From Sedimentisphaerales bacterium (GTDB taxonomy: Bacteria; Planctomycetota; Phycisphaerae; Sedimentisphaerales; SM23-30), in the NCBI GenBank assembly GCA_963666285.1, contig OY762711.1: a stretch of 64,000 bases of DNA; one strand, written 5' to 3'. Positions 25,249 to 46,140 of the stretch are shown here, in pieces (within the stretch, counting starts at the first letter, position 1; every line of letters starts with the position of its first letter). The notes under the pieces were generated by a model that was not told where the DNA came from, searched no databases, and saw only the letters and a list, made by a program, of their open reading frames with translations. A program made the translations under genes and the position numbers.

Positions 25249-25785
25249 TTATTTGATTTCAACCCATTCTTCTTTCTTTTCAACTTTGAACGGGCCTAGA
25301 TCAGCATCTAAAACAACTTTTACTTTGCCGCTGAAATTATTAGGAGCTCGCCACGAACTCCGGCATGTGCCGCCTCAGCCAAAGGTAAAATCGCCAGAAC
25401 CGAGCAGTTTTTCCTGTTCATCATAAATCTTATATGATGGAGCATTCTGCATACTACCATTTCTTTCTGCTGCAGGTAAATAGGTTTCGCCGGCATTTCC
25501 CTCTAAAACAGCCCCCAGGTATAAAGTTCGACCGCTGACGGTAACATCTGCCCTGGCAACCAGCGGCTCACCAGGTTTTGAATCATTTTTCCAAGGGGAA
25601 GTTGATATTGAAAGCTCCCATATATTGCCCTGATCATCTTTTACAGATAGCCCAGAGTCTGAGATAACTTTAGCTGACGGATTCATAAACATAAAAAAGA
25701 GGAAAAGACCAATAATTACAAAACCAACAATAAAAATGCCTTTAGGCCCGGATTTATTCATTTCTTCAAAACTTTTTTCTGTCAT
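25249..25785 (-). CDS. Predicted selenoprotein A (178 aa, U137), single TM plus GUGGxC domain
   Basis: ORF-track stop TGA 25375-25377 reads through as FTFG-U-GGTCRSSWRAP... to TAA 25249-25251, just upstream of selA; hairpin loop at +22. Confidence 0.85.
25343..25361 (-). promoter_or_regulatory. Putative bacterial SECIS upper hairpin
   Basis: GGAGTTCG-TGG-CGAGCTCC, loop starts 22 nt after the UGA. Confidence 0.8.
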
Positions 25786-26052
25786 AGAACTCTCCAGTGT
25801 TAATTTGACGCAAAACAATACTAAATATCAAAACGACAAGGCTATACTATAACTAATAAATGCACTAATTTGTATCAAAAACCTTGAAAAATGATTTCAT
25901 CTGTTATAAATCTGCTTATATTCTCATAAGAAAAGTAGTAATATAAATTTAATTAGTCAAACCACACAACCAAACTACCATAACATCCTATATTAACAAA
26001 GGTTACAGTTTAACAACCTTTTAAGTGCCTTTGTTTTATATACCGAAATATC

Positions 26053-26081
26053 TTGCAATTATTTTGGGATTATGGCATGAT
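26053..26081 (+). promoter_or_regulatory. Candidate sigma70 promoter for the ABC-selD-selC operon
   Basis: TTGCAA-17 nt-CATGAT with an extended -10 TG. Confidence 0.4.
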
Positions 26082-26133
26082 ATATGAAGTTATTGTCTCG
26101 GCATATTAGAAATTGCTTTTTACAGGAAATTGA

Positions 26134-26271
26134 ATGAACAGCTATCAATATATACGATTAATGCACTCCGGAAAACAGGAGTATGGCTGAGTTGTTTCCT
26201 GTCGATACTCGTGTCGAGTGTCAGAAAGCAATTCTATCTTTAAATGTTTCATACAGCTTCATTTTATTTAA
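26134..26271 (+). CDS. Candidate Sec-codon leader peptide (45 aa, U19)
   Basis: AGGA then ATG 26134; MNSYQYIRLMHSGKQEYG-U-VVSCRYSCRVS...*; TGA 26188-26190; GATACTCG-TGT-CGAGTGTC hairpin with loop at +22. Confidence 0.6.
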
Positions 26272-26325
26272 TAGAATCGTTAATGACACCAATAATATTG
26301 GTCAAAACCAAATAAAGAGCATATC

Positions 26326-26354
26326 GGCAGACTGGAATTTATCGTCTGCCTTTT
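26326..26354 (+). terminator. Intrinsic-terminator-like hairpin in the operon leader
   Basis: GGCAGAC-11 nt-GTCTGCC followed by TTTT, about 35 nt before the SBP start codon. Confidence 0.55.
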
Positions 26355-26389
26355 CTATTTTAAATGGGAACATTGCCGAAAGGGAAAAT

Positions 26390-27520
26390 ATGAAAAATCT
26401 TCTACTTGCACTAATCGTTATAACAGCAGCGATAACCGGCTGCGAAAAAAAGGAAACCACATCCAGCGATAATACCACAAATCAAACACCATCAAAAGCA
26501 GTAACATTAAAAGTTGGGCATGTCGGCCACGACCACCACCTGGCATTGTATATGGCATGTGATTACGCTGATGAACTAAGTATAAATGGCGTCAGACTGG
26601 AGAAAGTTGAGGACATGAAATATTATACACTCTATAAAAACGAGACCAAACTTGCAGACGTGGAAATTGTAAAAGTTGGCGGCGGAGCCAAGATGCCTAC
26701 CGCACTGGCACAGGATGTCATAGATATTGGATTTGGCGGAGTTGCACCGGTTATTGCAGCAGTTGATAAAAACGCACCTGTAAAATTAATCAGCCCACTA
26801 CACTCCAAGGGTGATATGTTTGTGATGAAAACCGACTCCGAGGTAAACAATTGGGACGATTTTATTAAAATGGCAAAAGAAACCAAAACACCTATCAGAA
26901 TAGGATACAAAAGTCCATCAGCAGTCGCCAAGTTAATCTTTGAAGATGCTCTAAGTAATGCAGGGATCTCTTTTGGACAGGACCCTGCCCAGACCGATAT
27001 TAATGTGTTAATGGTTAATACCAAAGGCGGCGGCAAACTGAATGTTGCCCTGGAAAGCAATATTATTGATGGTTATGCAGGAAATAACCCATTCCCTGCT
27101 ATTGCCGTTAATAAGAAAATGGGAAAAGTAATTGCCGACCTGGAAGACCTTCCGCCTGGAAACTTCAAGAACCATCCATGCTGCTGCATTGCAGCTAACG
27201 ATAAGGCCCTGGCGGAAAAAACTGAAGCTATCGAGGCAATGCTGACACTATTCAAAAAGGCAACCGATTTAATCAACAACGACCTGAATAAATCAGTTGC
27301 AGCTGCGACGCACTGGATTGGTACATCTGAAGAAGTCGAAAAGATGAGTATTCCGACCAGCGGATACAGTATGCAGGTCACTGAGGATTGGCAGGCGACC
27401 ATGGATAAATGGTTCGAGGCTATGAAGGCTCTTGACACCTATCAAGGTGAACTAAAGGACATACCTGCTAAACAGGCCTGTGATAAAGTATACGATATGT
27501 CAATTTTGAAAAAGATATAA
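26390..27520 (+). CDS. ABC transporter substrate-binding lipoprotein (SsuA/TauA/NMT1-like)
   Basis: Lipobox ITGC; GHVGHDHHLAL and HPCCC motifs; upstream of permease and ATPase. Confidence 0.88.
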   Translation: MKNLLLALIVITAAITGCEKKETTSSDNTTNQTPSKAVTLKVGHVGHDHHLALYMACDYADELSINGVRLEKVEDMKYYTLYKNETKLADVEIVKVGGGAKMPTALAQDVIDIGFGGVAPVIAAVDKNAPVKLISPLHSKGDMFVMKTDSEVNNWDDFIKMAKETKTPIRIGYKSPSAVAKLIFEDALSNAGISFGQDPAQTDINVLMVNTKGGGKLNVALESNIIDGYAGNNPFPAIAVNKKMGKVIADLEDLPPGNFKNHPCCCIAANDKALAEKTEAIEAMLTLFKKATDLINNDLNKSVAAATHWIGTSEEVEKMSIPTSGYSMQVTEDWQATMDKWFEAMKALDTYQGELKDIPAKQACDKVYDMSILKKI

Positions 27521-27533
27521 ACAGCTATAAATA

Positions 27534-28373
27534 ATGAACAATCCAAAGATAAGAAAATCAAATATCATCGGCTGGCTGATTATGCCAATAGTGCTGCTGG
27601 GAATATGGCAATTACTAGCGGTTAAACTTAACCAGCCATGGCTGATACCTGCACCGGTAAAGATAATAGAACAGTTGACCCACCCACTGCGAATTCATTT
27701 TTCGTCCGGGTCACTTTTTAGCAATACAATTATCAGCCTTCTGAGAGTATTTATCGGTTTTGCGCTAGCAGCTATTATCGGAGTTTCAGCAGGATTACTG
27801 CTGGGTTCGATCCGGCCGCTTAGACAATGGTTTGAACCAACAATAGAGATTATCAGGCCGTTATGCCCAATTGCCTGGCTGCCGTTTGCGATTGCGGTAT
27901 TCAAACTGAACACTCTGCCTAATCTTTTTGGTATCAGGTTTACTCATACCATACTGGACCAGGTACAGCTGGGTATGATATTTGTAATTTTTATCGGCGG
28001 ATTCTTTCCGATCTTCACTAACACTATGGATGGAGTAATAGGAGTGAGAAAGAATTTTGTCAGGCTGGCCCAGACACTTGGCGCAACCAGAGTCCAGGTA
28101 TTCCTGCAAATATATCTACCTTCTGCTATGCCTCAAATTCTTACCGGATTGCGACAGGGACTCGGCTTGTGCTGGTTTGTTATTATTGCAGCCGAAATGA
28201 TGGTTGGCTCTGATACAGGCATAGGCTATTTACTGATGTATGCCGCAGATAACTCGGCAATGGATATCGTGATATCATGCATGATTATCATAGGTGTGAT
28301 CGGCGCTGTAATGAGTACTGCTATGCGTATACTGATACACAAAAAGGTTGCATGGAAAGGAAAAGAGTTTTAA
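27534..28373 (+). CDS. ABC permease (SsuC/TauC-like)
   Basis: SLLRVFIGF, RPLCPIAW, EAA-like loop AQTLGA, IIAAEM. Confidence 0.92.
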   Translation: MNNPKIRKSNIIGWLIMPIVLLGIWQLLAVKLNQPWLIPAPVKIIEQLTHPLRIHFSSGSLFSNTIISLLRVFIGFALAAIIGVSAGLLLGSIRPLRQWFEPTIEIIRPLCPIAWLPFAIAVFKLNTLPNLFGIRFTHTILDQVQLGMIFVIFIGGFFPIFTNTMDGVIGVRKNFVRLAQTLGATRVQVFLQIYLPSAMPQILTGLRQGLGLCWFVIIAAEMMVGSDTGIGYLLMYAADNSAMDIVISCMIIIGVIGAVMSTAMRILIHKKVAWKGKEF

Positions 28374-29149
28374 TGCAAACAGAACTACAACATCCTAATA
28401 CATGCACAAGTGTTATACCTCTAATCAGTTTTACAGGTATCAGTAAAGCATTCACCTCCGATTCCGGCCGAATAGTACAGGCTTTGACAGATGTATCATT
28501 TTCGGTGCGACCTGGTGAATTTATTACAATTGTTGGTGCAACCGGTTCCGGTAAAACCACTTTACTGAACCTGATAGCCCGTCTGGAACATTCAGATGCA
28601 GGAATAATAGAATACAACAACTCACTGGATATAAAAAATGAAATATCTTATGTATTCCAGCATTATACCCTGCTGCCCTGGTTAAACATTCAGAAAAACA
28701 TCTCTTTGGGACTGAAGCTGCGTAAAATACCTCAAAAACAACGAATTAAAACCGCATGCAGGTTAATGAAAGATACCGGGCTAAAAGGTTTTGAGCGGGC
28801 GTACCCACATGAGCTTTCCGGTGGAATGAGACAGCGTGCCGCAATTGCCCAGGCCCTGGCAACAGAACCAAAACTACTGCTTATGGACGAACCATTCGGG
28901 TCACTTGATGATGGCACACGAAGCGACTTACAGCAGATGTTAATAAATATCCACCAGCAAAGCAAAACTACTATTCTATTTGTTACTCATAACATTGACG
29001 AAGCAATATTGCTGGCTGACAGGATAATTGTTTTAAGCAAATCGCCTGGAAATATATTAGAAGATATTGAAATTAACCTGGCAAAACCAAGAAACAGAAA
29101 CAATAACGATTTTACTAAACTTTTTTTGCAGATACGGAATTTATTATGA
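28373..29149 (+). CDS. ABC ATP-binding protein (SsuB/TauB-like)
   Basis: GATGSGKT, LSGGMRQR, LLMDEPF, FVTHNIDEA; start overlaps the permease stop. Confidence 0.93.
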   Translation: MQTELQHPNTCTSVIPLISFTGISKAFTSDSGRIVQALTDVSFSVRPGEFITIVGATGSGKTTLLNLIARLEHSDAGIIEYNNSLDIKNEISYVFQHYTLLPWLNIQKNISLGLKLRKIPQKQRIKTACRLMKDTGLKGFERAYPHELSGGMRQRAAIAQALATEPKLLLMDEPFGSLDDGTRSDLQQMLINIHQQSKTTILFVTHNIDEAILLADRIIVLSKSPGNILEDIEINLAKPRNRNNNDFTKLFLQIRNLL

Positions 29150-30777
29150 CAATTAATAAAGAAAGACGTAAACGCGTAATGCAGCGTTCTATCAAACTGG
29201 GACATTGTGTATGCGACCCTAAACAACCCTGTCCTTGTGAGATATTCAAGGAAAAAAACATATGCTTATGTGCAGGTGAGAGACTGGAGGAACCAACTGG
29301 AGAAGTTCGCTTAACCCAAATGGTGGAAAAGGCAGGATGCGGCTCCAAAATTGACCAGGCTTTCCTCAAGGAAGTGCTTGGCGATTTGAAAATGCCGGAA
29401 GACACTAACGTTCTAGTTGGCGTACCTGCCGGTGATGATGCCGGGGTATACGATATGGGCAATGGAACCTGCCTGGTTCAAACAGTTGATGTATTTACCC
29501 CAACTGTTGATGATCCATATATGTTCGGCCAGATTGCAGCAGCAAATTCTGTTAGTGATGTATATGCTATGGGCGGCATACCCAAAACCGCCCTTTCGAT
29601 AATCGGCTTTCCGGTACGCAAAGTCCCTGATAGAGTAATGAAAGAGATCATCCGAGGTGGAATTGATAAAATGGCAGAAGCCGGTGTGTCTATTATTGGC
29701 GGACATAGTATCAACGACCCGGAAATAAAAGCAGGCTATGCAGTAACTGGAACAATAGATAAAGAAAAAGTAATTACTAATGATGGCATAAAGGTTGACG
29801 ATGTATTCATCCTTACTAAAGCATTAGGGACAGGAATAATCTCATTTGCATCTCAAATAGGACGAGCGTCTAAAAGTGCAATGGAAGCTGCCGCAAAGTC
29901 AATGGCAACCCTGAATAAAACAGCATGCGAGTTAATGGTGAAATACAATGCCCATGCCGCCAGTGATGTTACCGGCTTTAGCTTGATAGGCCATTTATCA
30001 GAAATGACAAGACGTAGCGGGGTAGATGTCGAGATAACCTGGGATAAGCTGCCCTGGCTGCCGGAGGCACTTGATTATGCCGCTCAAGGAATATATCCCG
30101 GGGCAATCGAACGAAACAAGGAATCATGTGGTCATACCATTATTGTCGATGATAATGTGAGCGAAGCAATGGCTGATATCTGTTTTGACGCTCAGACTTC
30201 CGGCGGCATGCTAATTGCAGCAGCACCAGATAAAGCTGAAAAACTATTAGGTGAACTGAAAGCATCTGGACTGGAATATGCTGCCATCATTGGTAGGACC
30301 ATTTCAAGAGGCTCAGGAAAAATTAACATTGTAACGGACCGGACAAAATCATTTACAGCTTCTAATGCCGCTCAAAACATACAGGAAACTTCAGAACCTG
30401 ACCCGGAGCCATGTTGCGGGACAGGAGCAGCATCTGCAATAAAAGCACAAACAGCTAATGCAGAAAGCTGTTGTTGCGGTCCAGAACCGGATGGGCAAGA
30501 TAACAATAATGAACCAATCAAAGCTATCGAAACCAGTTTTTCCAGCTTTATGAGTAAGGTAAACAGACCCGGCGGACTTGACGCATTCACCAAGCAAGCG
30601 GTGAACCTGGCATTGTCTATCCATTCGAAATGTAAACCTTGTCTCAAAACACATATTGCAAAAGCACGTAAAATGGGCTATACTGAATCTGAGATTGACG
30701 AAGCAGCATGGATGGCAATCGCTTTTGGCGGTTCACCGGCCATGATGTTTTATAAAGAAGTGAAAGCAGAGGTATAA
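29146..30777 (+). CDS. selD: Selenophosphate synthetase with N-terminal Cys-rich extension and C-terminal AhpD/CMD-like domain
   Basis: AGCGSKI, GDDAGVY, QTVDVFTP, AAANSVSDVYAMGG, GGHS, DVTGFSL, DAQTSGG; C-terminal CKPC...EIDEA. Confidence 0.95.
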   Translation: MTINKERRKRVMQRSIKLGHCVCDPKQPCPCEIFKEKNICLCAGERLEEPTGEVRLTQMVEKAGCGSKIDQAFLKEVLGDLKMPEDTNVLVGVPAGDDAGVYDMGNGTCLVQTVDVFTPTVDDPYMFGQIAAANSVSDVYAMGGIPKTALSIIGFPVRKVPDRVMKEIIRGGIDKMAEAGVSIIGGHSINDPEIKAGYAVTGTIDKEKVITNDGIKVDDVFILTKALGTGIISFASQIGRASKSAMEAAAKSMATLNKTACELMVKYNAHAASDVTGFSLIGHLSEMTRRSGVDVEITWDKLPWLPEALDYAAQGIYPGAIERNKESCGHTIIVDDNVSEAMADICFDAQTSGGMLIAAAPDKAEKLLGELKASGLEYAAIIGRTISRGSGKINIVTDRTKSFTASNAAQNIQETSEPDPEPCCGTGAASAIKAQTANAESCCCGPEPDGQDNNNEPIKAIETSFSSFMSKVNRPGGLDAFTKQAVNLALSIHSKCKPCLKTHIAKARKMGYTESEIDEAAWMAIAFGGSPAMMFYKEVKAEV

Positions 30778-30793
30778 CATCTCCTGCTTAGCT

Positions 30794-30890
30794 GGAGGTG
30801 ACAGGTAACTGGTGTTGCTCCTGGTCTTCAAAACCAGTGTGGGGCGGTAAGCCCGTCCCGGGTGGGTTCGATTCCCATTCGCCTCCGCCA
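30794..30890 (+). tRNA. selC: tRNA-Sec (anticodon UCA)
   Basis: 8-bp acceptor stem GGAGGTGA/TCGCCTCC, anticodon arm CTGGT-CTTCAAA-ACCAG, long variable arm, GGTTCGATTCC, 3' GCCA. Confidence 0.97.
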
Positions 30891-31014
30891 TTTTAGACTC
30901 TCCTACCTGAATATTAGCACATTTAATAGCACATTACTCTTTTATCCTACCTACCATTCTGATATAATATTTCTATCTGAATTTTAAATTATTCATCATT
31001 TATCAGGCTTAATA

Positions 31015-32400
31015 ATGGCTAAAAAAACTGGCAAAAAAGCAAACTATATCATCTTTGGAAACCAAGAAGTTAAAACTGTTTTCGATGGAAAAGAAATTGG
31101 AGTAAGCCTTGATAGAACCACTCAATCTCACTATACAATGCTTCCGCAAAAATCAGGAAGAACCAAACGAAAATGGTTAGGAAAGCATACAGGTAAAGCC
31201 GTTGCAAGTTTCTGGGCTTTAGTAGAAGAGCTCAATAACAAACAAACACCTACAACAACCATAATCGCTCAACAAGAAGACATATCCCCCCTGTATGAAC
31301 CAACGGATAAAATGTCTATGGATGAAGTTGTCAGGTCCAATCAAATTAAGTTAAGAAAGACTGGCAAAGTAATACTTACAACAAAGGAGTCAGAGCATAT
31401 ACAATGGCTATTCAAGGAACTCCAAAATCCCAAGGAATTGGCTCGTAAAACTGGCATCGAAGAGTTTACAGAGTTTGGAAAACTATTAGCCAAAGATACC
31501 AACATACCTCTTAAAGACCTTCTTAAAAACTATCTTAATAAAAAGAAAACCGTTTCAAAAACAACCAGACAACAAAGCAAAACATTTTTTAATAATTTCA
31601 TTAAAGCTATTGACTGCAAGTATGTCGATGAAATCACCCTGAAAGACATACACAACTATGAAGACTATATATACTCAAAAGGATTAGCCGCGAAAAGCAT
31701 CATTAACCAAATATGCACTATATCTACTATCATAAATTACAACACAGGAAGATATCACTGCCCTCATCTATTACAAGTGCATAGTTGGCTCCAGAAAGGA
31801 ATAGACAAACCTACGGAAGATAAACTTTACAATCCAAAATTGATTTCAGTTGTTGATTTTATGGCTTTATACGAAGTGGCTCCATTCAAATGGAAGCTGT
31901 TTCTATTACTTGGTCTGAATTGTGCAATGTATCCAATTGACATTTCCAACTTTCAACTAAAACACCTCAATATCGAAGATGGAACGGTTGCATTTAGACG
32001 GGGTAAAACAGGTAAAGTATTAGCCGTTTCTACCTTATGGACAATTACAAAAAAACTTTTAAAACAATACCTGAAAGACAAAAAAGATAAAAGCCCGTAT
32101 GTATTTATTTCAAGACTTGGAATACCACATAGCCCCAAAGGTATAACTACTGCATTTGACAAGACTATTAGAAAAAACGCCAAAGTTTCAAAGGATGTTA
32201 AGTTCAACCACCTACGAGACACATTTGCTACTTTGGCACAAGATGCAGGCTTTTCTATCGAACAAATCAACCTCGTGTTAGGACACAAAAACAAAGGAAT
32301 GAACGACCGATACGCTGCTCGCCAAGCAAAACAACTAACAAGTAAAATATGCAATTCAGTAGAAGATGAGTTCTTTTCTTCAAACAAAATAAAAAAATAA
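31015..32400 (+). CDS. Tyrosine recombinase/integrase
   Basis: KFNHLRDTFAT (HxxR), LGH, DRY catalytic Tyr; next to the att site. Confidence 0.9.
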   Translation: MAKKTGKKANYIIFGNQEVKTVFDGKEIGVSLDRTTQSHYTMLPQKSGRTKRKWLGKHTGKAVASFWALVEELNNKQTPTTTIIAQQEDISPLYEPTDKMSMDEVVRSNQIKLRKTGKVILTTKESEHIQWLFKELQNPKELARKTGIEEFTEFGKLLAKDTNIPLKDLLKNYLNKKKTVSKTTRQQSKTFFNNFIKAIDCKYVDEITLKDIHNYEDYIYSKGLAAKSIINQICTISTIINYNTGRYHCPHLLQVHSWLQKGIDKPTEDKLYNPKLISVVDFMALYEVAPFKWKLFLLLGLNCAMYPIDISNFQLKHLNIEDGTVAFRRGKTGKVLAVSTLWTITKKLLKQYLKDKKDKSPYVFISRLGIPHSPKGITTAFDKTIRKNAKVSKDVKFNHLRDTFATLAQDAGFSIEQINLVLGHKNKGMNDRYAARQAKQLTSKICNSVEDEFFSSNKIKK

Positions 32401-32590
32401 CCACTATATTTTAATTATTGAATAAATAATGCTGTAAGTAAAAGTCAGTTTGAGTCTGACGCAGAATTGACGCAGGGAATGACCTATATCGATTATTCTA
32501 TTACTGGTGGCAGTGATGCTCCACGTAGTGGCATAAGTTGTTTCCTGTTGTTTGATAACTACAATGTAATTTATCAATATTAAATTAAAG

Positions 32591-33151
32591 TTACTTTATG
32601 GCACATTCAATGATATAATTGGGAAAATCGTGAATTGCTTCATCTAACATCTCACCTAACTGAAATATTCTTTTCATTTTGTCGGAACTAAGTTCACTTA
32701 ATTTAATTATTGAATATCTATTTAATATATTATTAGGGCTGCTATGAGAATATTCGACCAATATTCCACAATCAATATCAGTATTTGGCAAAGTAAATAA
32801 TCTAACTTTACCGAAAGGTTTACTATTAAGTTTAACCTGATTTATACTCTCTTGTTTTGCCTTTGATGGTGCAGGTATTGTAACTTTTGTTCCTCCAGAT
32901 TCAATACTATTACCAACTTCATAATTTGAATTAGCTGGGATGAACTTCGACTCAGAACCGCCAATAATCTCACAAAAGAATAGCCGATTTTCATAAAAAC
33001 CTAAATCGTTCAATTGCTTACCTACTTCATCTTCTTCCATTCCTTTTATCAAAACCAGTTGTTTTTTTTCATTGATTTCTAATCTACTATCATTGTCAGA
33101 CATGCAACCAGATATATTAATTAAAGCAAATAATAATATAAAGAATCTCAT
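32591..33151 (-). CDS. Lipoprotein, candidate immunity protein
   Basis: Lipobox ISGC; directly downstream of the RHS-core gene. Confidence 0.55.
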   Translation of the reverse strand: MRFFILLFALINISGCMSDNDSRLEINEKKQLVLIKGMEEDEVGKQLNDLGFYENRLFFCEIIGGSESKFIPANSNYEVGNSIESGGTKVTIPAPSKAKQESINQVKLNSKPFGKVRLFTLPNTDIDCGILVEYSHSSPNNILNRYSIIKLSELSSDKMKRIFQLGEMLDEAIHDFPNYIIECAIK

Positions 33152-33179
33152 ATCGTCCTTTCATTATCATATTATGAAA

Positions 33180-34121: not shown

Positions 34122-34150
34122 AACATACCTCTCAAAATCATAATGTATAA

Positions 34151-36772: not shown

Positions 36773-36784
36773 TGATAATTCTTT

Positions 36785-37713: not shown

Positions 37714-37911
37714 TTATGCTGTTAATTTTATAACTGAATTACCTTGGATCCTTGGCAACTTATACTCTTGATAATAGTTATATAAGGCTATGGCATATAA
37801 TGACTCTTGCTCTTGACTATTTAAATTCTTGGCAAGGTTGCCATTGAATATGGCATTATTATCTTTATTTATTTGTCTTTCATACCATTGAATTGTCTTT
37901 GTTTTCGCCAT
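37714..37911 (-). CDS. Small hypothetical protein
   Basis: GAGG RBS, 65 aa, same orientation as neighbours. Confidence 0.4.
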   Translation of the reverse strand: MAKTKTIQWYERQINKDNNAIFNGNLAKNLNSQEQESLYAIALYNYYQEYKLPRIQGNSVIKLTA

Positions 37912-38030
37912 TTTTGAGCCTCATTTTATTGTGTTTTTATCTTCGCCTGAAAAAATGTTCTACTCTGGTTAATAGCAATAAAAAAGACAGTTGACTAAAT
38001 GAAGAACTAACTGCCTCGGAGATGTATATG

Positions 38031-38552
38031 CTACTGATTAAAGACATTCAATATCTTTACCTTGGCACGATAATGCCGTTTTTTAACAGCATCTATTGAT
38101 ATGTTCAACTCTGTTGCTATTTCTTTGTAATTCATCCCTGACCGATGAGAAACAAACGCCATGTGTTCCTTGGATGTCAGATTTGCCTTCATAATAATTT
38201 CAACTACTTCAGCCATACAGATATCGAAGCAAAAATGTTTATCAGATTTTTCAGTCATTTCTTTTAAATAAACAGATTGTTTAATTTGACCATCTAACCA
38301 TTCACTTAGAATATCTTTCAACTTGTTGTTGAGCACTTTGTATGAGTAGGATTGTGGGTATTCGACCTTCTTACCTTGCTTGAAATTACGTTCAACTACA
38401 GACAGAAACCTGACCTTCAGTTCAGACTTTATATCATTTTTATCTGTATCTGTTAAATAATATTTTTGGATACTGTCATAAAACTGATTTGATATGAAAC
38501 TCTTGTAATAACCATAATACTTTAAATATTCCCACTTCAATTTATCACTCAA
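38031..38552 (-). CDS. Sigma70 region-4/ECF-like regulator
   Basis: GMNYKEIATELNISIDAVKKRHYRAK HTH. Confidence 0.75.
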   Translation of the reverse strand: MSDKLKWEYLKYYGYYKSFISNQFYDSIQKYYLTDTDKNDIKSELKVRFLSVVERNFKQGKKVEYPQSYSYKVLNNKLKDILSEWLDGQIKQSVYLKEMTEKSDKHFCFDICMAEVVEIIMKANLTSKEHMAFVSHRSGMNYKEIATELNISIDAVKKRHYRAKVKILNVFNQ

Positions 38553-39548
38553 TTTACATCAACTCCACACCTGAAATCTGTTGCTATTCAGGTTCCATAC
38601 TAACCATTGTTACAGTGTAAGTATAACAAAATGTTTTTCACTTTTCAACGAAAATCGCCTATTTTAACATTTTCGGGAAAGATAATACCTGTGACCTGTG
38701 GATCCTGTCAAGCCTTGTTAGGCTAATTGAAATGAATTATCATTGTATATAAACATTGAAAGAAAAAATAAAAGATAAGGTATGCTATCGCCGCTGTCGA
38801 AGACAGTGGGGGTCAATTTTCGATTTGCTTTAGCAAATTGAAAGTTGCAGTTAAGTCAGTAGCCTTGTTATCTACCTATTTTCATTTTTTCACAGAAGAA
38901 GAATATTAGGTATGTCAGTTATTCCTGTTATACCTGTAAAGTCTAAATGGCAGGCATTTAGACCACACCACACTTCGTGTCGTGTGTTATTTTTATTGTT
39001 TTTTTAATCTTTTCAGGTTTTCAGTCCCTAAGGTTCCTTAGTAACTATCAATAGTTATTATATATAGACCCCAAAAGGGTCAAAATCGGGACATATAATT
39101 TTAATTATTTCTGAAAAATATTTGATTGTTGATAGTGATGGGCAAGTGTGGCAGAATGCCACACAGCCCTTGGTCTCTTATAGGGACAGGTTTAAATTCT
39201 CTTCATATTGAGCCAGGACTGTCTGTATCCCCAGAGGGCGCATAGCACCTGTAAAAGAAATAGGATTATCCGGGAGCAATCTCGTGGCTCCGGTGGTAAG
39301 TTGAAAGATAGAGCCAACACTTGCAATGTAAAATTGCTTTACATCACCTACAATAATAAGGCTCAACATAGTAAAAAGCCTCATAAACTTTCCTTGTATA
39401 AAGAAGATAGATAGGCTATCATTATTGAAATAATAAATGCAATGTCTATGAGGATAATTGATTAAAAACATTAGCACATTCACATAGCACATTGCCAAAT
39501 ATTGAAAATATAACTTTTTATTTAATAAATAGTTATAAAATGTCGGAT

Positions 39549-39580
39549 TGGGTTCGATTCCCATTCGCCTCCGCCATTTT
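39549..39580 (+). repeat. attR: duplicated 3' end of tRNA-Sec
   Basis: Exact copy of 30863-30894. Confidence 0.95.
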
Positions 39581-39869: not shown

Positions 39870-39881
39870 CAGGAGGCTGTG

Positions 39882-40709
39882 GTGTCCATGGCTAAAGAAA
39901 GCAAGCTACACAACTTTGCTCTAAAACTTATCCCTCACCGACTTTGGGTCCAAACAGCATTTCTGCTGGTCTGGCTCGACCCGCTGGCATTGCGTATGCA
40001 CACAGCCTGTGCACCTGTGTTCCATTGTTATGCATGTCCGCTGGCAACTTTTGCCTGCCCGGTTGGCGTTATTGCACAATTTACCGCATTACACCTTTTC
40101 CCTTTCCTTGCTATAGGTCTGATACTTAGCCTGGGCGCCTTGCTCGGCTCGATTATCTGCGGATGGATGTGCCCGTTTGGTTTACTGCAGGATCTGGCGG
40201 CAAAAATTCCAATACCACGTTTCAAAATCCCGCAATGGATGGGCTATGGTCGATATATCGTATTGCTGGGTACAGTCATTCTTATCCCTTATATATGGGG
40301 AAGCGAACATAGTCTTTTTATATGTAGAGTATGCCCAATCGGAGCAATAGAAGGTGCAGGTCCTGATATTGTAACAGCTGCTGCAAATGGTTCAGAAATT
40401 GTATGGCCAAACGCCTTAAAGATGACAATTACAATCGTAGTAGTAGTCGCCATGTTTGTTTCGATAAGGCCCTGGTGCCGCGTATTATGCCCGTTGGGAG
40501 CAATATTTGGATTTATGAATCGATTCTCACTGTTCTCAATGAACCTGAAAGAGTCAAACTGCACTCAATGCGGCCACTGTCATACACTATGCACCTACGG
40601 TGTTGAGCCGGAAAAAGACTCCAACAGCGACAATTGCATACGATGTCTGGAATGTACCAAATGCAAGCCGGGAGCTCTTCAATCAGGTCACATTTTTGAG
40701 AAAGAATAG
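39882..40709 (+). CDS. Membrane 4Fe-4S binding protein (NapH/MauN/Fer4_5-like)
   Basis: CYACPLATFACP, CGWMCPFG, CRVCP, WCRVLCP, two ferredoxin-type CxxCxxC motifs. Confidence 0.9.
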   Translation: MSMAKESKLHNFALKLIPHRLWVQTAFLLVWLDPLALRMHTACAPVFHCYACPLATFACPVGVIAQFTALHLFPFLAIGLILSLGALLGSIICGWMCPFGLLQDLAAKIPIPRFKIPQWMGYGRYIVLLGTVILIPYIWGSEHSLFICRVCPIGAIEGAGPDIVTAAANGSEIVWPNALKMTITIVVVVAMFVSIRPWCRVLCPLGAIFGFMNRFSLFSMNLKESNCTQCGHCHTLCTYGVEPEKDSNSDNCIRCLECTKCKPGALQSGHIFEKE

Positions 40710-40714: not shown

Positions 40715-41836
40715 TTACCCTGTTGATTCTTCTGAGATTTGACTAATTGTGTCTAATACTGCTTCAGAATTGAGATTATCAGAATATCTAAACAATTCCA
40801 TGAACCTACAGTTCCAGAACTTGTTATTTATCAAAAATATCACAAACGGCAAACATAAAACAAAACAGGCAAAACCAAATATTAGTGCCATAAGCAATAC
40901 CTGCCAGATATAATCATCAATTTGCTGACTATTAGCCATTGCCTGTATAACAAATGCGGAAACGACAAATATTCCGGAAATTAAAATCATATTAACAAAT
41001 GTCAAGATGACGAACTTTATTGGCCTGAAACGCCTGCGACACATCCACCTGGTAACTATTATTCCCGACAAAACAACTCCGAATGCAATTAAGTAGACAA
41101 TAAATAGCTCTGCTTCCATGTCCCCGAAGCTCATTATTTCAAGTACGCCGAATGCGATAAATATAATAACAGTCAGGATAAAAACCAAAAAGCGATGCAC
41201 TTTTGCCAGCTTCTCAGACAATAGCCAACAGAAAACAAAACTGATAACTGTTGAGTTAACAATAATGTCAAAATATGTTCCAGATTGGCCAAGAGATACT
41301 ATTTTCAGGTATATCCACCATATCGCCAGCGCTATAACCATTGGCATAAGCAGCCATAAAGCTTTTCCTGTACGGTTTTCCTTGAGCAATATAAATCCAA
41401 CTGCAATAATCAACCACTTTACCATCCCAAGCAAAGCACTAAACGGACTGATATACACCTCAACCGGCCGGCCTTTAACTGGTCCCCAATCACCAATATT
41501 GTTACTTACCACAATTTGAATATTACCAAAAACATACCCAGGTATTCGCCACGAATACGAACTTAAGCCTCCTCAACCATACTCAAATTTACCGGTACCT
41601 AATTTTAAATTCCCTTTATATATTTCAAACGTTGGCTTCTGCCCTCTTTCAAACAGCCCTGAATTTTCATGAGCTTTTCCTAAGGTATCAAGAAGTTTAT
41701 ATTCCAGGGTAATATAACAGCCATTAATTCCAACCTCAACTGTATTATCCAAAGGCTTGCCAGGACTATCATCCGCAAGTAAACCAAAATTGATAGAAGA
41801 AATAAACAGAATAATAAATATAAATATTTTTTTCAT
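40715..41836 (-). CDS. Predicted selenoprotein B (373 aa, U88): signal peptide, GUGG domain, multi-TM membrane domain
   Basis: ORFs 41573-41848 and 40715-41512 are one frame interrupted only by TGA 41573-41575: FEYG-U-GGLSSYSWRIP; hairpin loop at +22. Confidence 0.85.
41542..41558 (-). promoter_or_regulatory. Putative SECIS upper hairpin
   Basis: GTATTCG-TGG-CGAATAC. Confidence 0.8.
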
Positions 41837-41858: not shown

Positions 41859-43184
41859 TTATTTCAATTGATCTTCCAACTCGTCAATCGTAAAACCTTC
41901 TGCAGTAACCTTCAATTCAGAATCTGCTAATATCAGCCATGGTAAGCCTTTCAAACCAAGTTTGAATTTAGCATCATCCAGCTCTTTATTCAAAATGCAA
42001 GATTCAAATGGAACAGAATTATCTGATAACCATTTATCAATTTCCTCCTGGTCAATTTGTCCGTTATGTACCAGCACAGTATGAATACCCTTTGTTTCAA
42101 GTATTTCTTTTTTACCTGCCAGCTGTTTAATAAAATAACGGCTTGGTCTCTGTTGTATATCCCAGAAAAAGAGCAAAACAGGCTTGCCTGCTTCCAGGTT
42201 GGTTATGCCGTATTTAGTCATATCAGGCAAATTCTTACCGAGCAAAGAAGAAGGCTGTCTAGGCACAAAGCCTCCGTAAGACGGTTGTTCACTAACTACA
42301 AGAACAACATCCTCGGCACCACCTTCAGTTTCTATGTGGTTGTATAAATGCCTGCCATTACTTTGATAGTTAGCCTGAATATTCGCCCTGCCTGAACAAA
42401 CAGCTTCAAAAGTAAATTTCCCTTCTTCATCTGTTTGTTTGCCTTCATTTGGCTGGCCGCTGCCGTAGAGATAAACATTAACATTAGATATGCCTTTTCC
42501 ATCTTCGTCAACAACCTGACCGGATATTTTCATATCAGCAATACGTAAAATAGTATTATCCAGCTGAATAACCCTGCCTATTATACCTGGATCTGCCTCA
42601 CAGCTTATGTTGCCTGAACCATATCCTTTGACACTACTAATATTAATACTGTACCTATGAGATTCCGGTAAACATGATACAGCAAACTCACCGTTGGCAT
42701 CTGATTTGATTTTTGACTCGGTACGTTCAAAGCTGCACCCCCAACTATTGGACATAAGTGACAATGAAACTCTCGCACCTTCAAGTGGTTCGCTTTTTTC
42801 GTTAACAACTTTACCTTTTACAGAAAATCCTTTTGCCAGTGTGATGTCTGCAACTTTACTATCTACTGTAATTGAAGTTGAACCTGCCAGATTGTTACCA
42901 ATATCTCTGGCAATAACATACATCTCATCTTGCACCCAGCTATAATTACTGGGCTTCCAGTTTATTATATATTTACCATCTGCATCCGTTGTCACACTTC
43001 CCGGCACATAATAGTTCGGCATAAGATAAACAGCTGCTCCTTCAACCGGGCTGCCATCGGCATCTCTAACTATTCCAATTAGTTGAGAAGGAGCATTACG
43101 CTGCATTTCTCTGACCATTGGAGTCGCCTGATCAGCCAGTTCCATCCCTAACGACGATAACAAGATTAAAAATAACCTTAACAT
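41859..43184 (-). CDS. Secreted protein with carboxypeptidase-regulatory-like repeats and a Cys-less thioredoxin-like C-terminal domain
   Basis: Three G.V.D..G.P..GA.V...TD..G repeats; GKPVLLFFWDIQQRPS and KGLPWLIL. Confidence 0.8.
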   Translation of the reverse strand: MLRLFLILLSSLGMELADQATPMVREMQRNAPSQLIGIVRDADGSPVEGAAVYLMPNYYVPGSVTTDADGKYIINWKPSNYSWVQDEMYVIARDIGNNLAGSTSITVDSKVADITLAKGFSVKGKVVNEKSEPLEGARVSLSLMSNSWGCSFERTESKIKSDANGEFAVSCLPESHRYSINISSVKGYGSGNISCEADPGIIGRVIQLDNTILRIADMKISGQVVDEDGKGISNVNVYLYGSGQPNEGKQTDEEGKFTFEAVCSGRANIQANYQSNGRHLYNHIETEGGAEDVVLVVSEQPSYGGFVPRQPSSLLGKNLPDMTKYGITNLEAGKPVLLFFWDIQQRPSRYFIKQLAGKKEILETKGIHTVLVHNGQIDQEEIDKWLSDNSVPFESCILNKELDDAKFKLGLKGLPWLILADSELKVTAEGFTIDELEDQLK

Positions 43185-43205
43185 AATAAATCCTTATCTT
43201 AAAAT

Positions 43206-43231
43206 AGCCCGGATCAATAATAATCCGGGCT
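43206..43231 (-). terminator. Intergenic hairpin
   Basis: AGCCCGGAT...ATCCGGGCT inverted repeat. Confidence 0.4.
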
Positions 43232-43245
43232 TTATTAGAATGATT

Positions 43246-46140
43246 TTATTTCTTTTTACGTGTTGAAGAAACAACCGCAACAACAACCATAACTACAAAT
43301 ATAACTATTACAGCACTCAAGTTGAACTTCCTCTCCTGCCCGGCTTCGGGTTGAGATTCTGACTGTTCAGCCTGAATCGCTTCTTCGGCGGCCTCTTCGG
43401 CTACTTCTTGCACAGATTCGCCTTCTTCAACAAAACTTACATTCTCCAGCTTAACTTCATCCTGTTCAGCTGCGACAATCTTATTTTCCTTGAAAAGCGA
43501 TTCAACTTGTTCGGCACTTAAGGCATAGCCAAAAATATAAGCTTCATCGATAAGTCCCTTAAAGTTCCTCATTGTACGGCTATGATCAATTTTACCAAGA
43601 ACGAAATGTACCGGATCATCAAATTGCTTTTCGACATTATTAACAAAGCCTGCCAGCTGGCCATCAATATACAGATAATTACAACTACCGGAATTAACTA
43701 TAACTATATGGTGCCAGTTATTATCTGTATAGATTCCATTACCATTAATTGAATTACCACCTTCGTTACCAAAAGGTTTTCTATGAAGATATCTAATCCG
43801 ATCTTTGTAGATTTCCAGCAAAATACCGTGATTACCATGGCCGGTTGCTGCAACTATATCCATCGCTTCATCTGTACCACCATTCTTAATCCATACAGAA
43901 ATCGAATAATCTTTCGATATAGTTAACGGATCAGTAATATCAACATAATCATCCTTACCATCAAGCTGCAACGCTCCGCCAAACCGGCCTTTACCAGGAA
44001 GCCATTCAGGCTCCCCATTAAGAGTTCCATTAAACGAATTATTTTGATCTAACGCTACCGAACCACTCACTTCATCAAGAGACCAATGAGCAAGCTGGTC
44101 GCCTTTCGTCTCAAATGACCATACCGGGCCAACTGTTGTTTTTCCGGATTGGCTTACTTCATCAACACACCAGAAATAGATGGCATTAGGAATAAGTCCG
44201 CTGAAAGTCAGTTCAGGTTTCCCTTTAATGCTGCCTAGCAGCTCCATATTCTGTTTTGTATTGCCAAAATATATTTTATGTATAACTGAATCTTCACCTG
44301 CAGTCCATAATACCTTCATTTTTCGCTGAGAAGCGACATTTGCCCCATCCCAAGGCTCCGGATTACAGGCATTTGCCCCAAGCTCTTTATAAAATCGAAC
44401 TTCACTAATCCCTATTTGACCACTCTTATGCCAACTGGATGGATTATCAAAACGAACTTTTTGAGCGTCTACTGGATCTAACTTAACTACAACGGGCGAA
44501 TCATAATCGAAAGTACCCTCAGCCTTGTCAAATACAATATCCTGCTTAACAGATTTCCAACCTTCTTTTTCAGTCCACACGGAAACATCAGCCTTTGCAA
44601 TACCATAATCGACATAACCTGGCTTATTATAATTCCAGACGACTATAGAAGTAAGTTTCTGTGGTTCAGTAAAATCAAAAACAATACCTTCACTATATCT
44701 TTCGACATTTGACAGCCACATAGCTTCAGTGTCAGTATTATGCTCTATCAGATTATCTTGATCTACATCCAGAAGACCGCTGCCATCAATTACAGCATTC
44801 ATCCCTTTAGCTACAACGCCGGTAACCATCTCGCCATATACAGTTCTTTTACGGTTTTCAGGTTTTAATGTATAAATTTTTCCCCTTATATCAAAAGGAG
44901 AATCAATAACAGCTTCAGCAATAAATGGTCGTGCAACATTCTTAGGCTCTCGCCACGAGAGCGAACAAGTGCCACCTCAACCATATTCCAGACTAAAAGT
45001 CTGGTCATAGGTCCGATCCCTGTTGTATATCCTGACCTTTGGAGCATCAGGTCTGCTGCCCGATTTTGTCAAGCTTACAGACTCTCCATTATTACCTGAT
45101 AATTGGTGTCTGAAGTAATAACTACCATTTCCATAACTCACCGATAGGTTTGAAAATACATTTTCGCCTACATTCGATTTGGCAACAGCTCCCCGGCTAA
45201 TCTCAAATTCGTTGCTATTGGAATACCAGGTGGCTCCCATCTCCCAGTTTTTACCGGAATCATCTTTTGCTGTTTTCTGCCAGGAACGAACTCGATATTT
45301 ACCAACAGGTAAACTGATTTGGCCATCTTTTATATTGTCTCGTTTGAACAAACCATTCTGGCCGCAGCATACGATTGAATCGACATTAACCGGTACTTCC
45401 AGCTTACTGTATGCAACGTCATCTGCCGAAGTCAATTCGACAAATGCTCCGTCTTTTGAAACTTGCAGGTTATATAGTTTATTTTCATATTCAATATAAT
45501 TACCAACAAAAGTTTCATGCTTGGTTATGACATCACCTATAATTATTCTGTCACTGTCAAATGTTTCAGAAATATCATTAAATGTGCCATTCAGATTATA
45601 GTCAACTAGCGTAATTTTTGTTTTAACACCAGCTATATCAACAGTCCCTTCATACCAGCACCCAATCTGGGCATACAAACGCTCGTAATCTGCTCTGTAG
45701 GAATAATAATAAAAATTAATATGATATGTAACGATCCCATCATCTGTATCAAACAGCACAGGAATTCCGTTGAAGTTTACACGGTATTCATCTCTACGCT
45801 CACCCTGATATTTTTCATTTTCAGAAATAGAGCCGTCCCCATTAGAATCAAAATACATTAGATCGTATTTGCCATATTTCTTCTGACGATCCAGTATTAT
45901 CTGCCTTGATTTCTTCCCGGCCATCTCATGCTTCCAAACGGCATACCTTACATCATCTGTATTTAGTTTTGGTACTGTCATTTCTGACGGTTTTTCCTTT
46001 GAAAGCTCGATATTTTTTGTGTTCCCACCTATGATTTCTCTGGCCGTATCGGAACTGCAATATCGCAACCATTGAGGTGCAGAAAAAACTGTCGCAGTAA
46101 TTGAAAAAATAACCAATAAAAATAATGCCTTGATTTTCAC
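43246..46140 (-). CDS. Predicted selenoprotein C (964 aa, U388): signal peptide, N-domain, GUGGxC domain, discoidin-like, LamG-like, C-terminal TM anchor
   Basis: ORFs 44977-46140 and 43246-44829 are joined in frame by TGA 44977-44979 plus 49 open codons: LEYG-U-GGTCSLSWREP; hairpin loop at +22. Confidence 0.87.
44946..44962 (-). promoter_or_regulatory. Putative SECIS upper hairpin
   Basis: GCTCTCG-TGG-CGAGAGC perfect stem. Confidence 0.82.

Follow-up and report, generated by a model that had tools for sequence, protein, structure and literature searches.

The window analysed here, a 64,000-nucleotide stretch of contig OY762711.1 from a Sedimentisphaerales bacterium, contains three minus-strand open reading frames (translation table 11) that are each ended by an in-frame TGA, at positions 25377-25375, 41575-41573 and 44979-44977. 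In all three the frame is open throughout and a common motif, (F/Y)G-U-GG-x-C-xx-S-W-R-x-P, runs across the TGA, U being the predicted selenocysteine (Sec). An initial annotation had claimed that homology crosses these stops, and the ORFs and their read-through frames bear this out, as they do the lengths of the products. Paralog 1 (25249..25785, 178 aa) has an N-terminal membrane anchor followed by the domain that holds the motif (the U-domain), with its TGA at 25375..25377 read through as ..FTFG-U-GGTCRSSWRAP... Paralog 2 (40715..41836, 373 aa) consists of a signal peptide, the U-domain and a C-terminal polytopic membrane region, with the TGA at 41573..41575 (..FEYG-U-GGLSSYSWRIP..). Paralog 3 (43246..46140, 964 aa) has, in order, a signal peptide, an N-terminal region, the U-domain, F5/8 type C and Laminin_G_3 domains and a C-terminal transmembrane anchor, with the TGA at 44977..44979 (..LEYG-U-GGTCSLSWREP..). 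A degenerate DNA pattern for the motif matches twice in the window, against 0.00 matches expected from shuffles.

As in canonical bacterial Sec systems, the genome has selA, selB, selD and tRNA-Sec, and all four lie inside the window (21891-30890). Paralog 1 sits 24 nt upstream of selA (23824-25224), which together with selB (21891-23813) lies downstream of it and is transcribed in the same direction. On the plus strand an ABC transporter (NMT1_2 binding protein, permease and ATPase) is followed by selD (26183..30777) and by tRNA-Sec with anticodon TCA (30794..30890); the selD product is of the Cys type, extended at its N-terminus by a Cys-rich segment and carrying a CMD domain at its C-terminus. 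A plus-strand gene for a Fer4_5 membrane Fe-S protein (39879..40709), convergent with paralog 2, comes after selD and tRNA-Sec here and in related Sec islands. The minus-strand gene at 41859..43184 encodes a protein of CarboxypepD_reg repeats whose C-terminal domain has a thioredoxin fold but no CxxC (..FFWDIQQRPSR..), and is a conserved neighbor of family members in four Sec islands; NQRPSR replaces WCxPC in all four genomes inspected, which bars this protein from acting as a classical disulfide reductant. Among Sedimentisphaerales-like Phycisphaerae, the Sec machinery and the family would travel as one island containing selA, selB, selD, tRNA-Sec, the Fer4_5 membrane protein and either ABC transporter or double-cubane-like genes.

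The family was initially described as having three paralogs, and while these three stand in the window, there are seven in the whole genome (four of them elsewhere), with one TGA apiece. When the 6.35 Mb genome was scanned without the motif, for any TGA flanked by open frame and followed 14-30 nt later by a stem of 7 bp or more topped with G-UGG-C, exactly these seven sites came back and nothing else, and within limited scans of the genome this is the sole selenoprotein family detectable so far. A signal peptide, lipobox or signal anchor is present in 7/7 as judged by eye, which fits the extracytoplasmic location proposed initially.

The locations and sequences of the hairpins downstream of the TGAs suggest that they are selenocysteine insertion elements (SECIS). 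They lie at 25343..25361 (8 bp stem, UGG loop, with the S-W-R codons forming the top), 41541..41559 (7 bp, AU-rich) and 44945..44963 (7 bp stem, UGG loop), all on the minus strand; that of paralog 2 is weak (−6.0 kcal/mol alone, −11.3 within a 60-nt context). There are several consistent features. First, the hairpin has 7–8 bp and a UGG loop, which lies 21 nt past the TGA in all seven genomic copies, a spacing also found in an ungapped alignment of 34 sites. Second, among these 34 distinct sites 93.8% of cells pair and six of the eight pairs change on both sides (40 cells), a level of covariation reached by none of 500 shuffles, with slid controls pairing at 23–55%. Third, columns 30–34 (G-UGG-C) are invariant (34/34), although part of the hairpin top, but not the covarying pairs, is fixed by the selection of the sites through a protein-motif regular expression demanding W followed by R or Q. 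Finally, the mean energy is −10.5 kcal/mol. The published bSECIS model (PMC13188914) describes an apical loop of 3–9 nt with G at one or both of the two leading positions, an upper stem of 4–16 bp, a UGA-to-loop distance of 16–37 nt and a minimum free energy of −7.5 kcal/mol or lower; the family agrees with it in loop, stem, loop G and spacing, and in energy at 32 of the 34 sites.

With its 3-nt (or 5-nt) apical loop, G within the loop's first two nucleotides, 7–8 bp stem and 21 nt spacing, the hairpin resembles canonical bSECIS elements, and as in genes of the E. coli fdhF type an in-frame UGA is followed just downstream by a stem-loop within the ORF; the protein family, fold and location are different from those of the fdhF type. 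Unlike canonical elements, the top is fixed as CG-UGG-CG across the family by the S/T/A-W-R codons, so that amino acid conservation and RNA structure are confounded. The hairpin is made of the codons for x-x-(S/T/A)-W-R-x-P, and this stretch is therefore coded for protein and RNA at once, the third base of the Arg codon pairing with the Ser/Thr/Ala codon's first base. The Arg is found in 33/34 Sec forms and in only 4/10 Cys forms. The shared S-W-R signature of the initial annotation is conserved beyond the TGA as claimed, but is largely imposed by the SECIS RNA. We propose that the UGA is recoded through this 7–8 bp, UGG-loop hairpin 21 nt downstream.

The sequence beyond the TGA behaves as coding sequence. 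The frame is open for 38 to 540 codons past the TGA in 31/31 homologous loci, and in four close pairs the differences after the TGA fall on the three codon positions as 7/5/32, with 28 synonymous and 10 non-synonymous codons; purifying selection acts downstream of the TGA. In one subfamily a Sec/Cys pair is seen at the DNA level, with TGA in three loci (L191-L193) and TGC in a fourth (L194), and C occupies the U position in 10/114 database representatives (protein entries). Other stop-free relatives have E, D, R, Q, S or L at this position or a reshaped loop, and the scaffold can therefore exist without a reactive residue. The U-x3-C spacing proposed initially holds in 33/34 Sec sites, paralog 2 in the window being an exception with Ser at U+4.

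The distribution of the family follows that of the Sec machinery. In an order-level sample of 41 related genomes the family is present in 13 and SelA in 11, each of the latter having the family too, and 28 have neither; the two family-positive, SelA-negative genomes are 78% complete and carry tRNA-Sec (72.6 and 74.2 bits), so that every genome of this sample with the family also has Sec machinery. Here 52/53 family matches have a single TGA each, no match being stop-free. Across a phylum-level sample the TGA is present in 64/73 matches; SelA is found in 24 of the 25 genomes with a TGA form and the remaining one has SelB, whereas SelB is missing as well from the two SelA-less genomes whose forms are all stop-free. 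The family is not rare: one subfamily alone comprises at least 319 clusters at 90% identity, and one strict DNA motif is present in at least 141 genomic stretches, almost all from Planctomycetota, in which this exported family is common. Sec forms far outnumber Cys forms, and public copies are "hypothetical proteins" cut off at a ..(F/Y)G end, the misannotation that had been predicted.

These truncated gene calls could also be taken at face value, with the TGAs being real stops in split genes or pseudogenes, or codons reassigned to Trp or Gly, as might be read from some database entries in which this position is G or W, as under translation with code 25 or 4. This reading, already disfavored, is extremely improbable given the covarying hairpin, the third-position bias past the TGA and the presence of the Sec machinery. 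Moreover, TGA is the ordinary stop of 6/43 long ORFs in the window and also terminates a further paralog (L004), and a single TGA recurs in the same column in 52/53 order-level and 64/73 phylum-wide matches, TAA or TAG alone never being present.

Structure prediction places both sides of the TGA in one domain. The AF2 model of paralog 1 (pLDDT 85.8) has strands on either side of U137, and together with a model of a second type (L006; pLDDT 89.9) it indicates an Ig/macroglobulin-like beta-sandwich with U-x3-C within a hairpin loop. The proteins would be exported, either lipid- or membrane-anchored or secreted, with a sandwich of about 110 residues in which Sec lies in a glycine-rich loop, (F/Y)G-U-G-G-x-C, four residues before a near-invariant Cys. 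Nothing but generic Ig-like sandwiches comes out of the fold searches (best Z 7.5 and 10.6; Foldseek 6.5e-3 and 2.4e-4). The nearest structural neighbors are MG domains of E. coli and Salmonella alpha-2-macroglobulins (Z 7.5 and 9.8), the match to 4zjh having Z 7.5, rmsd 2.3 and 78 aligned residues; residues 277-417 match 8u01 (a GH2 Ig-like domain) at Z 10.6 and 4u48 at 9.8. Pfam gives MG2 in 6/37 members and PKD_6 in 5/37, all below curated cut-offs, and unlike this family none of the MG, PKD and E-set domains has a Sec/Cys loop. Membership of the Ig-like/macroglobulin-type sandwiches, which have seven to nine strands and superpose on MG/Fn3/PKD domains, holds at the level of fold only, and these modeled fold matches carry no information on chemistry.

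The Cys homologs, conservation past the TGA and co-occurrence with the machinery that the initial annotation had named as checks are all found, and structure prediction, named there too, gives one fold across the TGA. Together the covarying SECIS, the co-occurrence with SelA, SelB and tRNA-Sec, the post-TGA selection, the TGA-spanning sandwich and the TGC counterpart support the prediction of Sec incorporation; the "stop" codon is almost certainly read as selenocysteine in the seven paralogs, and we conclude with high confidence that these genes are genuine SelB/SECIS-decoded selenoproteins of one family that is uncatalogued in the sources checked. The modules added by read-through (the polytopic membrane region of paralog 2; the F5/8 type C, Laminin_G_3 and anchor segments of paralog 3) raise the further possibility that the UGA mainly makes the C-terminal part, including the last strands, depend on selenium, with selenium chemistry being secondary and a selA-linked gene coupling its translation to expression of the sel operon, and a small member does lie within or directly upstream of selA-selB. 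This is very unlikely, as stopping at the UGA would split the beta-sandwich and leave an incomplete domain, most lipoprotein-type members have only about 40–50 residues after the UGA, and chemistry at this residue is suggested both by the Cys at U+4 and by the stop-free relatives that have Cys in place of U.

The family fits none of the catalogued selenoproteins with which it was compared, in keeping with the first impression that it matched no recognized family. None of 37 members matches an NCBIfam (20.0) model at E 0.01 or below, no Pfam model is above cut-off, and none of the 119 families tabulated in a 2026 review fits (PMC13188914, Table 1). A DUF1573 selenoprotein with the UGC motif was rejected, there being no match to PF07610 among the 37 members at E up to 1, and a thioredoxin-fold UxxC/CxxU selenoprotein, with Sec in a CxxC-type motif at the N-terminus of a helix, was rejected because the models are all-beta, with U placed in a hairpin loop as part of a U-x3-C motif; most characterized selenoproteins are thioredoxin-like in fold (PMC13188914). 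The catalogued envelope or exported selenoproteins, namely DUF1573, the TonB-dependent receptor FCYXU, the GSU2204 outer-membrane barrel, SaoB/SaoX binding proteins and UGC-containing TlpA (PMC13188914), are likewise extracytoplasmic, computationally found and typically truncated in databases, but differ in motif and fold and have no sequence match. TsoA (LULAXC motif, NF045695; PMC13188914, Table 1) has the same U-x3-C spacing, and was compared by motif and model only, the family giving no NCBIfam match. 'Hypothetical protein DG' (NF049953), from Desulfosediminicola, is described in the deep-Sep report (PMC12013277) as having a GUxG motif, which G-U-G-G formally fits, and many Cys homologs, and it too has no conserved domain; the family is set apart from it by this description and by the NCBIfam scan of the 37 members rather than by sequence.

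We infer that the loop is an extracytoplasmic selenol/thiol redox or chalcogen/metal-reactive one. Tentatively, U-x3-C would be a redox center cycling through a selenenylsulfide, a possible reading for which the U+4 Cys, the conserved thioredoxin-fold neighbor and the presence of a fused, CxxC-bearing Redoxin/AhpC-TSA domain in two members of the Cys form (P0042 and P0027) would speak. Against it stand the absence of the U+4 Cys from paralog 2, the lack of CxxC in that neighbor and the existence of the scaffold without a reactive residue.

DsbD (its N-terminal domain), SoxY/SoxZ and CopC are periplasmic beta-sandwiches with a reactive Cys on a loop, and paralog 2 is like DsbD in that its domain is joined to a polytopic membrane region, although Pfam finds no DsbD-type membrane domain. 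There is no sequence relation to any of these, and the fold matches to SoxZ, SoxYZ and CopC are non-specific. The flexible, glycine-rich loop offers two soft ligands at a spacing of four residues, and might instead chelate Cu(I), Hg, Cd, Zn or similar for chaperoning, sequestration or sensing, without redox catalysis. The resemblance of the sandwich to periplasmic copper proteins such as CopC (5icu; Z 8.6, rmsd 2.9, 93 aligned) and the Cys/Gly-rich lipoprotein that adjoins one paralog (L004) are compatible with this, and metal-linked selenoprotein families have been noted (PMC13188914, Table 1). Such soft-metal binding seems unlikely, as CopC is just one of 43 chains with Z ≥8, no metal transporter, regulator or homeostasis gene recurs in six annotated islands, and the redoxin fusions favor thiol chemistry.

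SoxY is an Ig-like subunit paired with SoxZ and has a C-terminal GGCGG arm, which we take the GUGG loop to resemble. By analogy the G-U-G-G loop could, at the cell surface, be a covalent carrier of selenium or sulfur species in the form of Se-S or Se-Se adducts, the small selA-linked member passing selenium to the transporter and SelD. This small member is within 2 kb of selA in 9/11 SelA-positive relatives and also in further families of the phylum, and in two relatives lies between selA and selB on one strand; in this genome and one relative (G035) it is followed by an ABC transporter, an outer-membrane channel and selD. The linkage may nonetheless only mirror co-inheritance of machinery and client, most paralogs are far from sel genes, the motif is internal rather than C-terminal as in SoxY, no sox genes are seen in the six annotated Sec islands, and the weak Foldseek matches to SoxZ (1v8h, 1.2e-2) and SoxYZ (2oxh, 3e-2) are no better than those to dozens of other Ig-like folds. 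We regard such a carrier role as improbable.

This analysis would add a widespread selenoprotein family with an Ig-like fold, which would correct hundreds of truncated "hypothetical protein" records and offers a clean case of overlapping protein and RNA constraints. It escaped notice because Sec forms outnumber Cys forms and homology-based pipelines lean on Cys homologs; the deep-Sep authors acknowledge that their method may miss such families (PMC12013277). It also gives a convenient setting in which to ask why organisms lacking formate dehydrogenase retain the Sec trait, no molybdopterin oxidoreductase having been found in this genome, whose SelD is of the Cys type. At the speculative end, the family may be why these anaerobic Phycisphaerae keep the Sec code, as a transferable island of the machinery and its only clients, in which the small member of the selA-selB operon, with an uptake transporter and selD as neighbors, would face outward and take the first step in capturing or sensing selenium (or sulfur). 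This has a low probability; if true, a selenoprotein would feed or gauge the supply of its own cofactor.

Three minus-strand ORFs in the window, called under translation table 11, end at TGA codons at positions 25375, 41573 and 44977. When the TGA is read through, all three frames remain open and a common motif crosses the codon, as the initial annotation had stated. Paralog 1 (25785..25249, minus strand) is a product of 178 residues with the sequence FTFG-U-GGTCRSSWRAP, paralog 2 (41836..40715, minus strand) has 373 residues and FEYG-U-GGLSSYSWRIP, and paralog 3 (46140..43246, minus strand) has 964 residues and LEYG-U-GGTCSLSWREP. Judged by eye, each begins with a signal peptide or signal anchor, and paralog 3 has, besides an anchor at its C-terminus, F5/8 type C and Laminin_G_3 domains. 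A BlaI-type repressor and BlaR1/M56 sensor-protease pair (46701-48846) is divergent from paralog 3.

The initial annotation counted three paralogs, which is correct for the window, but a profile of the three window domains finds seven places in the 6.35 Mb genome (G000), with exactly one TGA apiece. The four extra genes encode lipoproteins of about 420-530 residues with the U-domain at the C-terminus, and their motifs are LEYG-U-GGLCGFSWREP, FDYG-U-GDLCEYSWRVP, MPFG-U-GGTCGYAWRIP and MEYG-U-SGLCGFSWRGP. A scan of G000 blind to the protein motif, demanding a TGA flanked by open frame (40 codons or more on its 5′ side, 20 or more on its 3′ side) and, 14-30 nt 3′ of it, a G-UGG-C hairpin top closed by 7 bp or more of stem, returned the same seven family sites and none besides. 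One paralog lies tail to tail with a gene for a 158-residue Cys/Gly-rich lipoprotein with repeated CGSGGCGGKK-like units (locus L004, 382-858).

Conservation continues beyond the TGA, a point that the initial annotation had proposed to check. All 31 of the 31 homologous loci keep an open frame there, over 38 to 540 codons, and in the first 40 codons past the TGA four close pairs differ 7, 5 and 32 times at codon positions 1, 2 and 3, the codon changes being synonymous in 28 cases and non-synonymous in 10. Reassignment of the genetic code is ruled out because TGA serves here as an ordinary stop, terminating 6 of the window's 43 long ORFs as well as the paralog at L004. Two metagenomic Sec forms (those with TGA at the U position) of a GFxC subfamily, L191 and L192, have a second in-frame TGA about 55 codons after the first (..GKGP-TGA-FFSL..), which may be either the terminal stop or another Sec codon. 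Two small selA-linked members, L030 (genome G040) and L031 (G029), have only 86 and 50 open codons 5′ of the TGA, where the sequence looks non-homologous; these genes may be frameshifted, may be pseudogenes or may start elsewhere.

Each TGA is followed, from 13 bases 3′ of it, by a 7-8 bp hairpin whose loop is UGG. We examined it as a candidate SECIS element in 34 distinct family sites from G000 and its relatives, with loci chosen by profile score and sites by a motif regular expression. First, pairing is present in 93.8% of cells, and both sides have changed at six of the eight pairs (40 cells). Second, none of 500 shuffles matches any of the five measures, and sliding the 3′ arm reduces pairing to 23-55%. 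Third, the most informative pair is that between a Ser/Thr/Ala codon, at its first base (U, A or G), and the Arg codon, at its synonymous third base (A, U or C); at one site UUG..CAA (Leu-Trp-Gln) keeps the pairing. Fourth, the mean energy is −10.5 kcal/mol, with 32 of 34 hairpins at or below −7.5 kcal/mol; the weakest, at −6.0 kcal/mol, is that of paralog 2. Finally, the hairpins agree with the published constraints on bacterial SECIS elements (PMC13188914) in loop, length of the stem, spacing (21 nt) and energy. The "SWR" that had been taken as part of the domain motif is thus partly an RNA signal, because its codons pair in the hairpin. The Arg is nearly universal at Sec sites (33 of 34), whereas 4 of the 10 representatives with Cys at the U position (Cys forms) have it. 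The Trp, together with the Pro of the motif, persists in both Sec and Cys forms.

The co-occurrence with selenocysteine machinery that had been suggested as a further check is most apparent within the order. Among 41 genomes sampled there, G000 included, 13 contain the family, with 53 matches, of which 52 have exactly one TGA, one weak match has several stops and none is stop-free. SelA is above cut-off in 11 of the 41, all of which contain the family, in nine cases with a member within 2 kb of selA; family and SelA are both missing from 28 genomes. Two genomes have the family but lack SelA; they are 78% complete and have tRNA-Sec (72.6 and 74.2 bits), in one of them on the same contig as a family gene. 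For the phylum, an even sample of 401 genomes yields 28 with a match at E ≤ 1e-5 and 73 matches in all, 64 with one TGA and nine stop-free. SelA is common at this level (290 of 401), and the association is therefore weaker evidence; SelA is found in 24 of the 25 genomes with a TGA form, and the exception (90% complete) has SelB. Both SelA and SelB are absent from two genomes with a stop-free form alone.

An alignment of the seven paralogs offered no stretch conserved enough for a related-locus search, and a degenerate DNA pattern was used in its place for the wider collections. At least 141 stretches in species-representative genomes fit the strict form of the pattern. The 80 matches listed are nearly all from Planctomycetota MAGs (Sedimentisphaerales, Anaerohalosphaeraceae, other Phycisphaerae, Pirellulales, Planctomycetaceae and Brocadiaceae), together with three from Verrucomicrobiota and one each from Acidobacteriota, Hydrogenedentota and an "Actinomycetes" MAG.

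Among 1.84 billion protein representatives, a search by profile gives 114 matches at E ≤ 1e-3. Some are generic PKD or Ig repeat proteins, and P0015, P0036 and P0057 were rejected as family members, being long PKD_6, Flg_new or Big_13 repeat proteins. Of the 114, 23 end exactly at ..(F/Y)G, ten span it with Cys at the Sec position, and the remainder have G or W, or else R, S, L, Q or P; the G and W probably reflect TGA called under codes 25 or 4. The five stop-free genomic sites that were read have E, D or a reshaped loop at this position. Cys homologs, which the initial annotation had thought worth seeking, are also seen as DNA: a metagenome scan with a Cys-form subfamily found four loci, three with TGA (FHYG-U-GFSCSLSWRGP) and one with TGC (LKWG-C-GFLCRKNWQAP), and so provides a Sec/Cys pair at the level of the codon. 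Sec forms nonetheless dominate over Cys forms.

The window paralogs lie near genes for selenocysteine insertion: selB (21891-23813, minus strand), selA (23824-25224, minus strand; 24 nt from the end of paralog 1 and on the same strand), selD (29146-30777, plus strand) and tRNA-Sec (30794-30890, plus strand). The island is split by an 8.7 kb integrative element (30863-39580) inserted in the 3′ end of tRNA-Sec and bracketed by exact 32-nt direct repeats of that end (30863-30894 and 39549-39580). The element contains genes for a tyrosine integrase (31015-32400) and a serine invertase/resolvase (35907-36500) and a sigma-factor-like gene (38031-38552), and its GC content drops to 0.35-0.37. With the element removed, a single block comprises the three paralogs, the sel genes, an ABC transporter and a membrane protein of the Fer4_5 type. 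The same parts recur in six islands of relatives. A small family member accompanies selA and selB there, in many cases next to an N_methyl pseudopilin-like gene, and selD, which is often CMD-fused, is followed by Fer4_5. The islands further contain an ABC transporter or, alternatively, HGD-D (double-cubane-like) genes accompanied by a BcrAD activator and a methyltransferase, as well as a CarboxypepD_reg-repeat protein with a thioredoxin-fold end and larger family members.

Several of these neighbors have features of their own. The SelD of G000 is of the Cys type (..AGCGSK..). It has an N-terminal extension rich in Cys (HCVCDPKQPCPC..CLC) and, at the C-terminus, a CMD/AhpD-like domain containing CKPC; the SelD-CMD fusion is also seen in the relatives G010 and G026. 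The ABC transporter (26183-29149, plus strand; NMT1_2 binding protein, permease and ATPase) lies directly 5′ of selD and overlaps it, and may be an uptake system for selenium compounds; in G035 (L179, 9658-13307) an outer-membrane Phenol_MetA_deg-type channel precedes it. Two or three HGD-D genes replace the transporter beside selD in four relatives (L180 8538-10831; L181 9049-14110; L182 11219-15524; L183 1-1294), where three of the islands also encode a SAM methyltransferase and one a BcrAD/BadFG activator ATPase. The arrangement is reminiscent of the statistical association of double-cubane proteins with SelD that Haft and Gwadz described (bioRxiv 10.1101/2022.07.06.499078). The Fer4_5 (NapH-like) membrane Fe-S protein (39879-40709) is located 3′ of selD/tRNA-Sec in G000, G010, G026, G033 and G035, and was rejected as a partner of paralog 2, as four relatives place it 3′ of selD and convergent with family genes.

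AlphaFold2 predicts a single beta-sandwich spanning the TGA for paralog 1 (pLDDT 85.8, pTM 0.72), in keeping with the continuous domain that the initial annotation had suggested to check by structure prediction. U137 and C141 are in a loop between strands 127-132 and 142-146, and four strands therefore lie beyond the TGA. The model indicates an Ig/macroglobulin-like sandwich, its best VIA row being an E. coli alpha-2-macroglobulin MG domain (Z 7.5, rmsd 2.3, 78 aligned). A lipoprotein-type member (pLDDT 89.9, pTM 0.81) is modeled in its entirety as a string of beta-sandwiches, and the best VIA rows for its residues 277-417 are a GH2 Ig-like domain (Z 10.6), Salmonella alpha-2-macroglobulin (9.8) and CopC (8.6). 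Foldseek was no more specific for the U-domain; searches with both models returned generic Ig-like, MG or Fn3 sandwiches alone, with no functional lead, and the fold tells nothing of the chemistry.

Within this family, for which recoding signals, export signals and a loop location are shown, the U-x3-C arrangement reported initially is conserved in that Cys occupies U+4 in 33 of 34 sites, but paralog 2 has Ser. The loop may act as a selenol/thiol redox centre, the leading though tentative reading, suggested by the interchange of Sec and Cys, by the fusion of two Cys forms (P0042 and P0027) to a Redoxin/AhpC-TSA domain with CxxC, and by the recurrence of the thioredoxin-fold neighbor. The CarboxypepD_reg-repeat proteins with this terminal fold adjoin family members in the window (41859-43184) and in three relatives (L180 14530-17037; L181 4123-6582; L182 5870-7576). 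Where CxxC would be expected they have a conserved D(M/I)(N/Q)QRPSR, so that the domain looks like a conserved but redox-dead thioredoxin fold, and a classical reductant is rejected, since NQRPSR stands in place of WCxPC in all four genomes read. This neighbor, together with the inert residues at the U position of some relatives, argues against a simple redox picture. Of the rival readings, binding of a metal by the U-x3-C loop seems less likely than redox chemistry, and carriage of sulfur or selenium, by analogy with SoxY, less likely again.

The family may be the only one of selenoproteins in G000, the searches being suggestive rather than exhaustive. There is no match to PF00384 (molybdopterin oxidoreductase) in this genome, and FdhA is therefore absent; the six matches to PF00578 and three to PF13905 (peroxiredoxin, thioredoxin-like) are all without stops. 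A loose scan for TGA with a stable hairpin gives 65 candidates and a relaxed loop scan 34, seven of them family members; four non-family candidates of the latter, when read through, look like non-coding frames, and neither scan offers a convincing selenoprotein besides the family.

The initial annotation recognized no known selenoprotein family here, and the catalogues bear this out. The U-domain has no match in Pfam or NCBIfam: 0 of 37 members match NCBIfam at E ≤ 0.01, and a lenient Pfam scan of the 37 gives only sub-threshold MG2 (6) and PKD_6 (5), without DUF1573. No row among the 119 families in Table 1 of a 2026 review (PMC13188914) has its motif or architecture. "Hypothetical protein DG" (GUxG, NF049953), reported from Desulfosediminicola (PMC12013277), differs in giving no match in the NCBIfam scan, and the SAO families described by Haft and Gwadz have CU motifs. 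Full-text searches on selenoproteins in Planctomycetes and these orders did not return the family. Public copies are unnamed or "hypothetical protein" and end at the TGA, so the suspected mis-annotation as proteins ending in (E)YG is indeed present: all three near-length relatives of paralog 1 stop there, and query coverage for the MPFG-U subfamily (319 relatives) is at most 89% for all but P0211 among the 120 matches listed. P0010, a natural Cys-form relative, retrieves only unnamed Planctomycetota clusters from the ESM Atlas. We conclude that this is very probably a real selenoprotein family, and one that is uncatalogued in the sources checked, distinguished by a fold unusual among selenoproteins, a membership dominated by Sec forms and a tight linkage to the sel genes.
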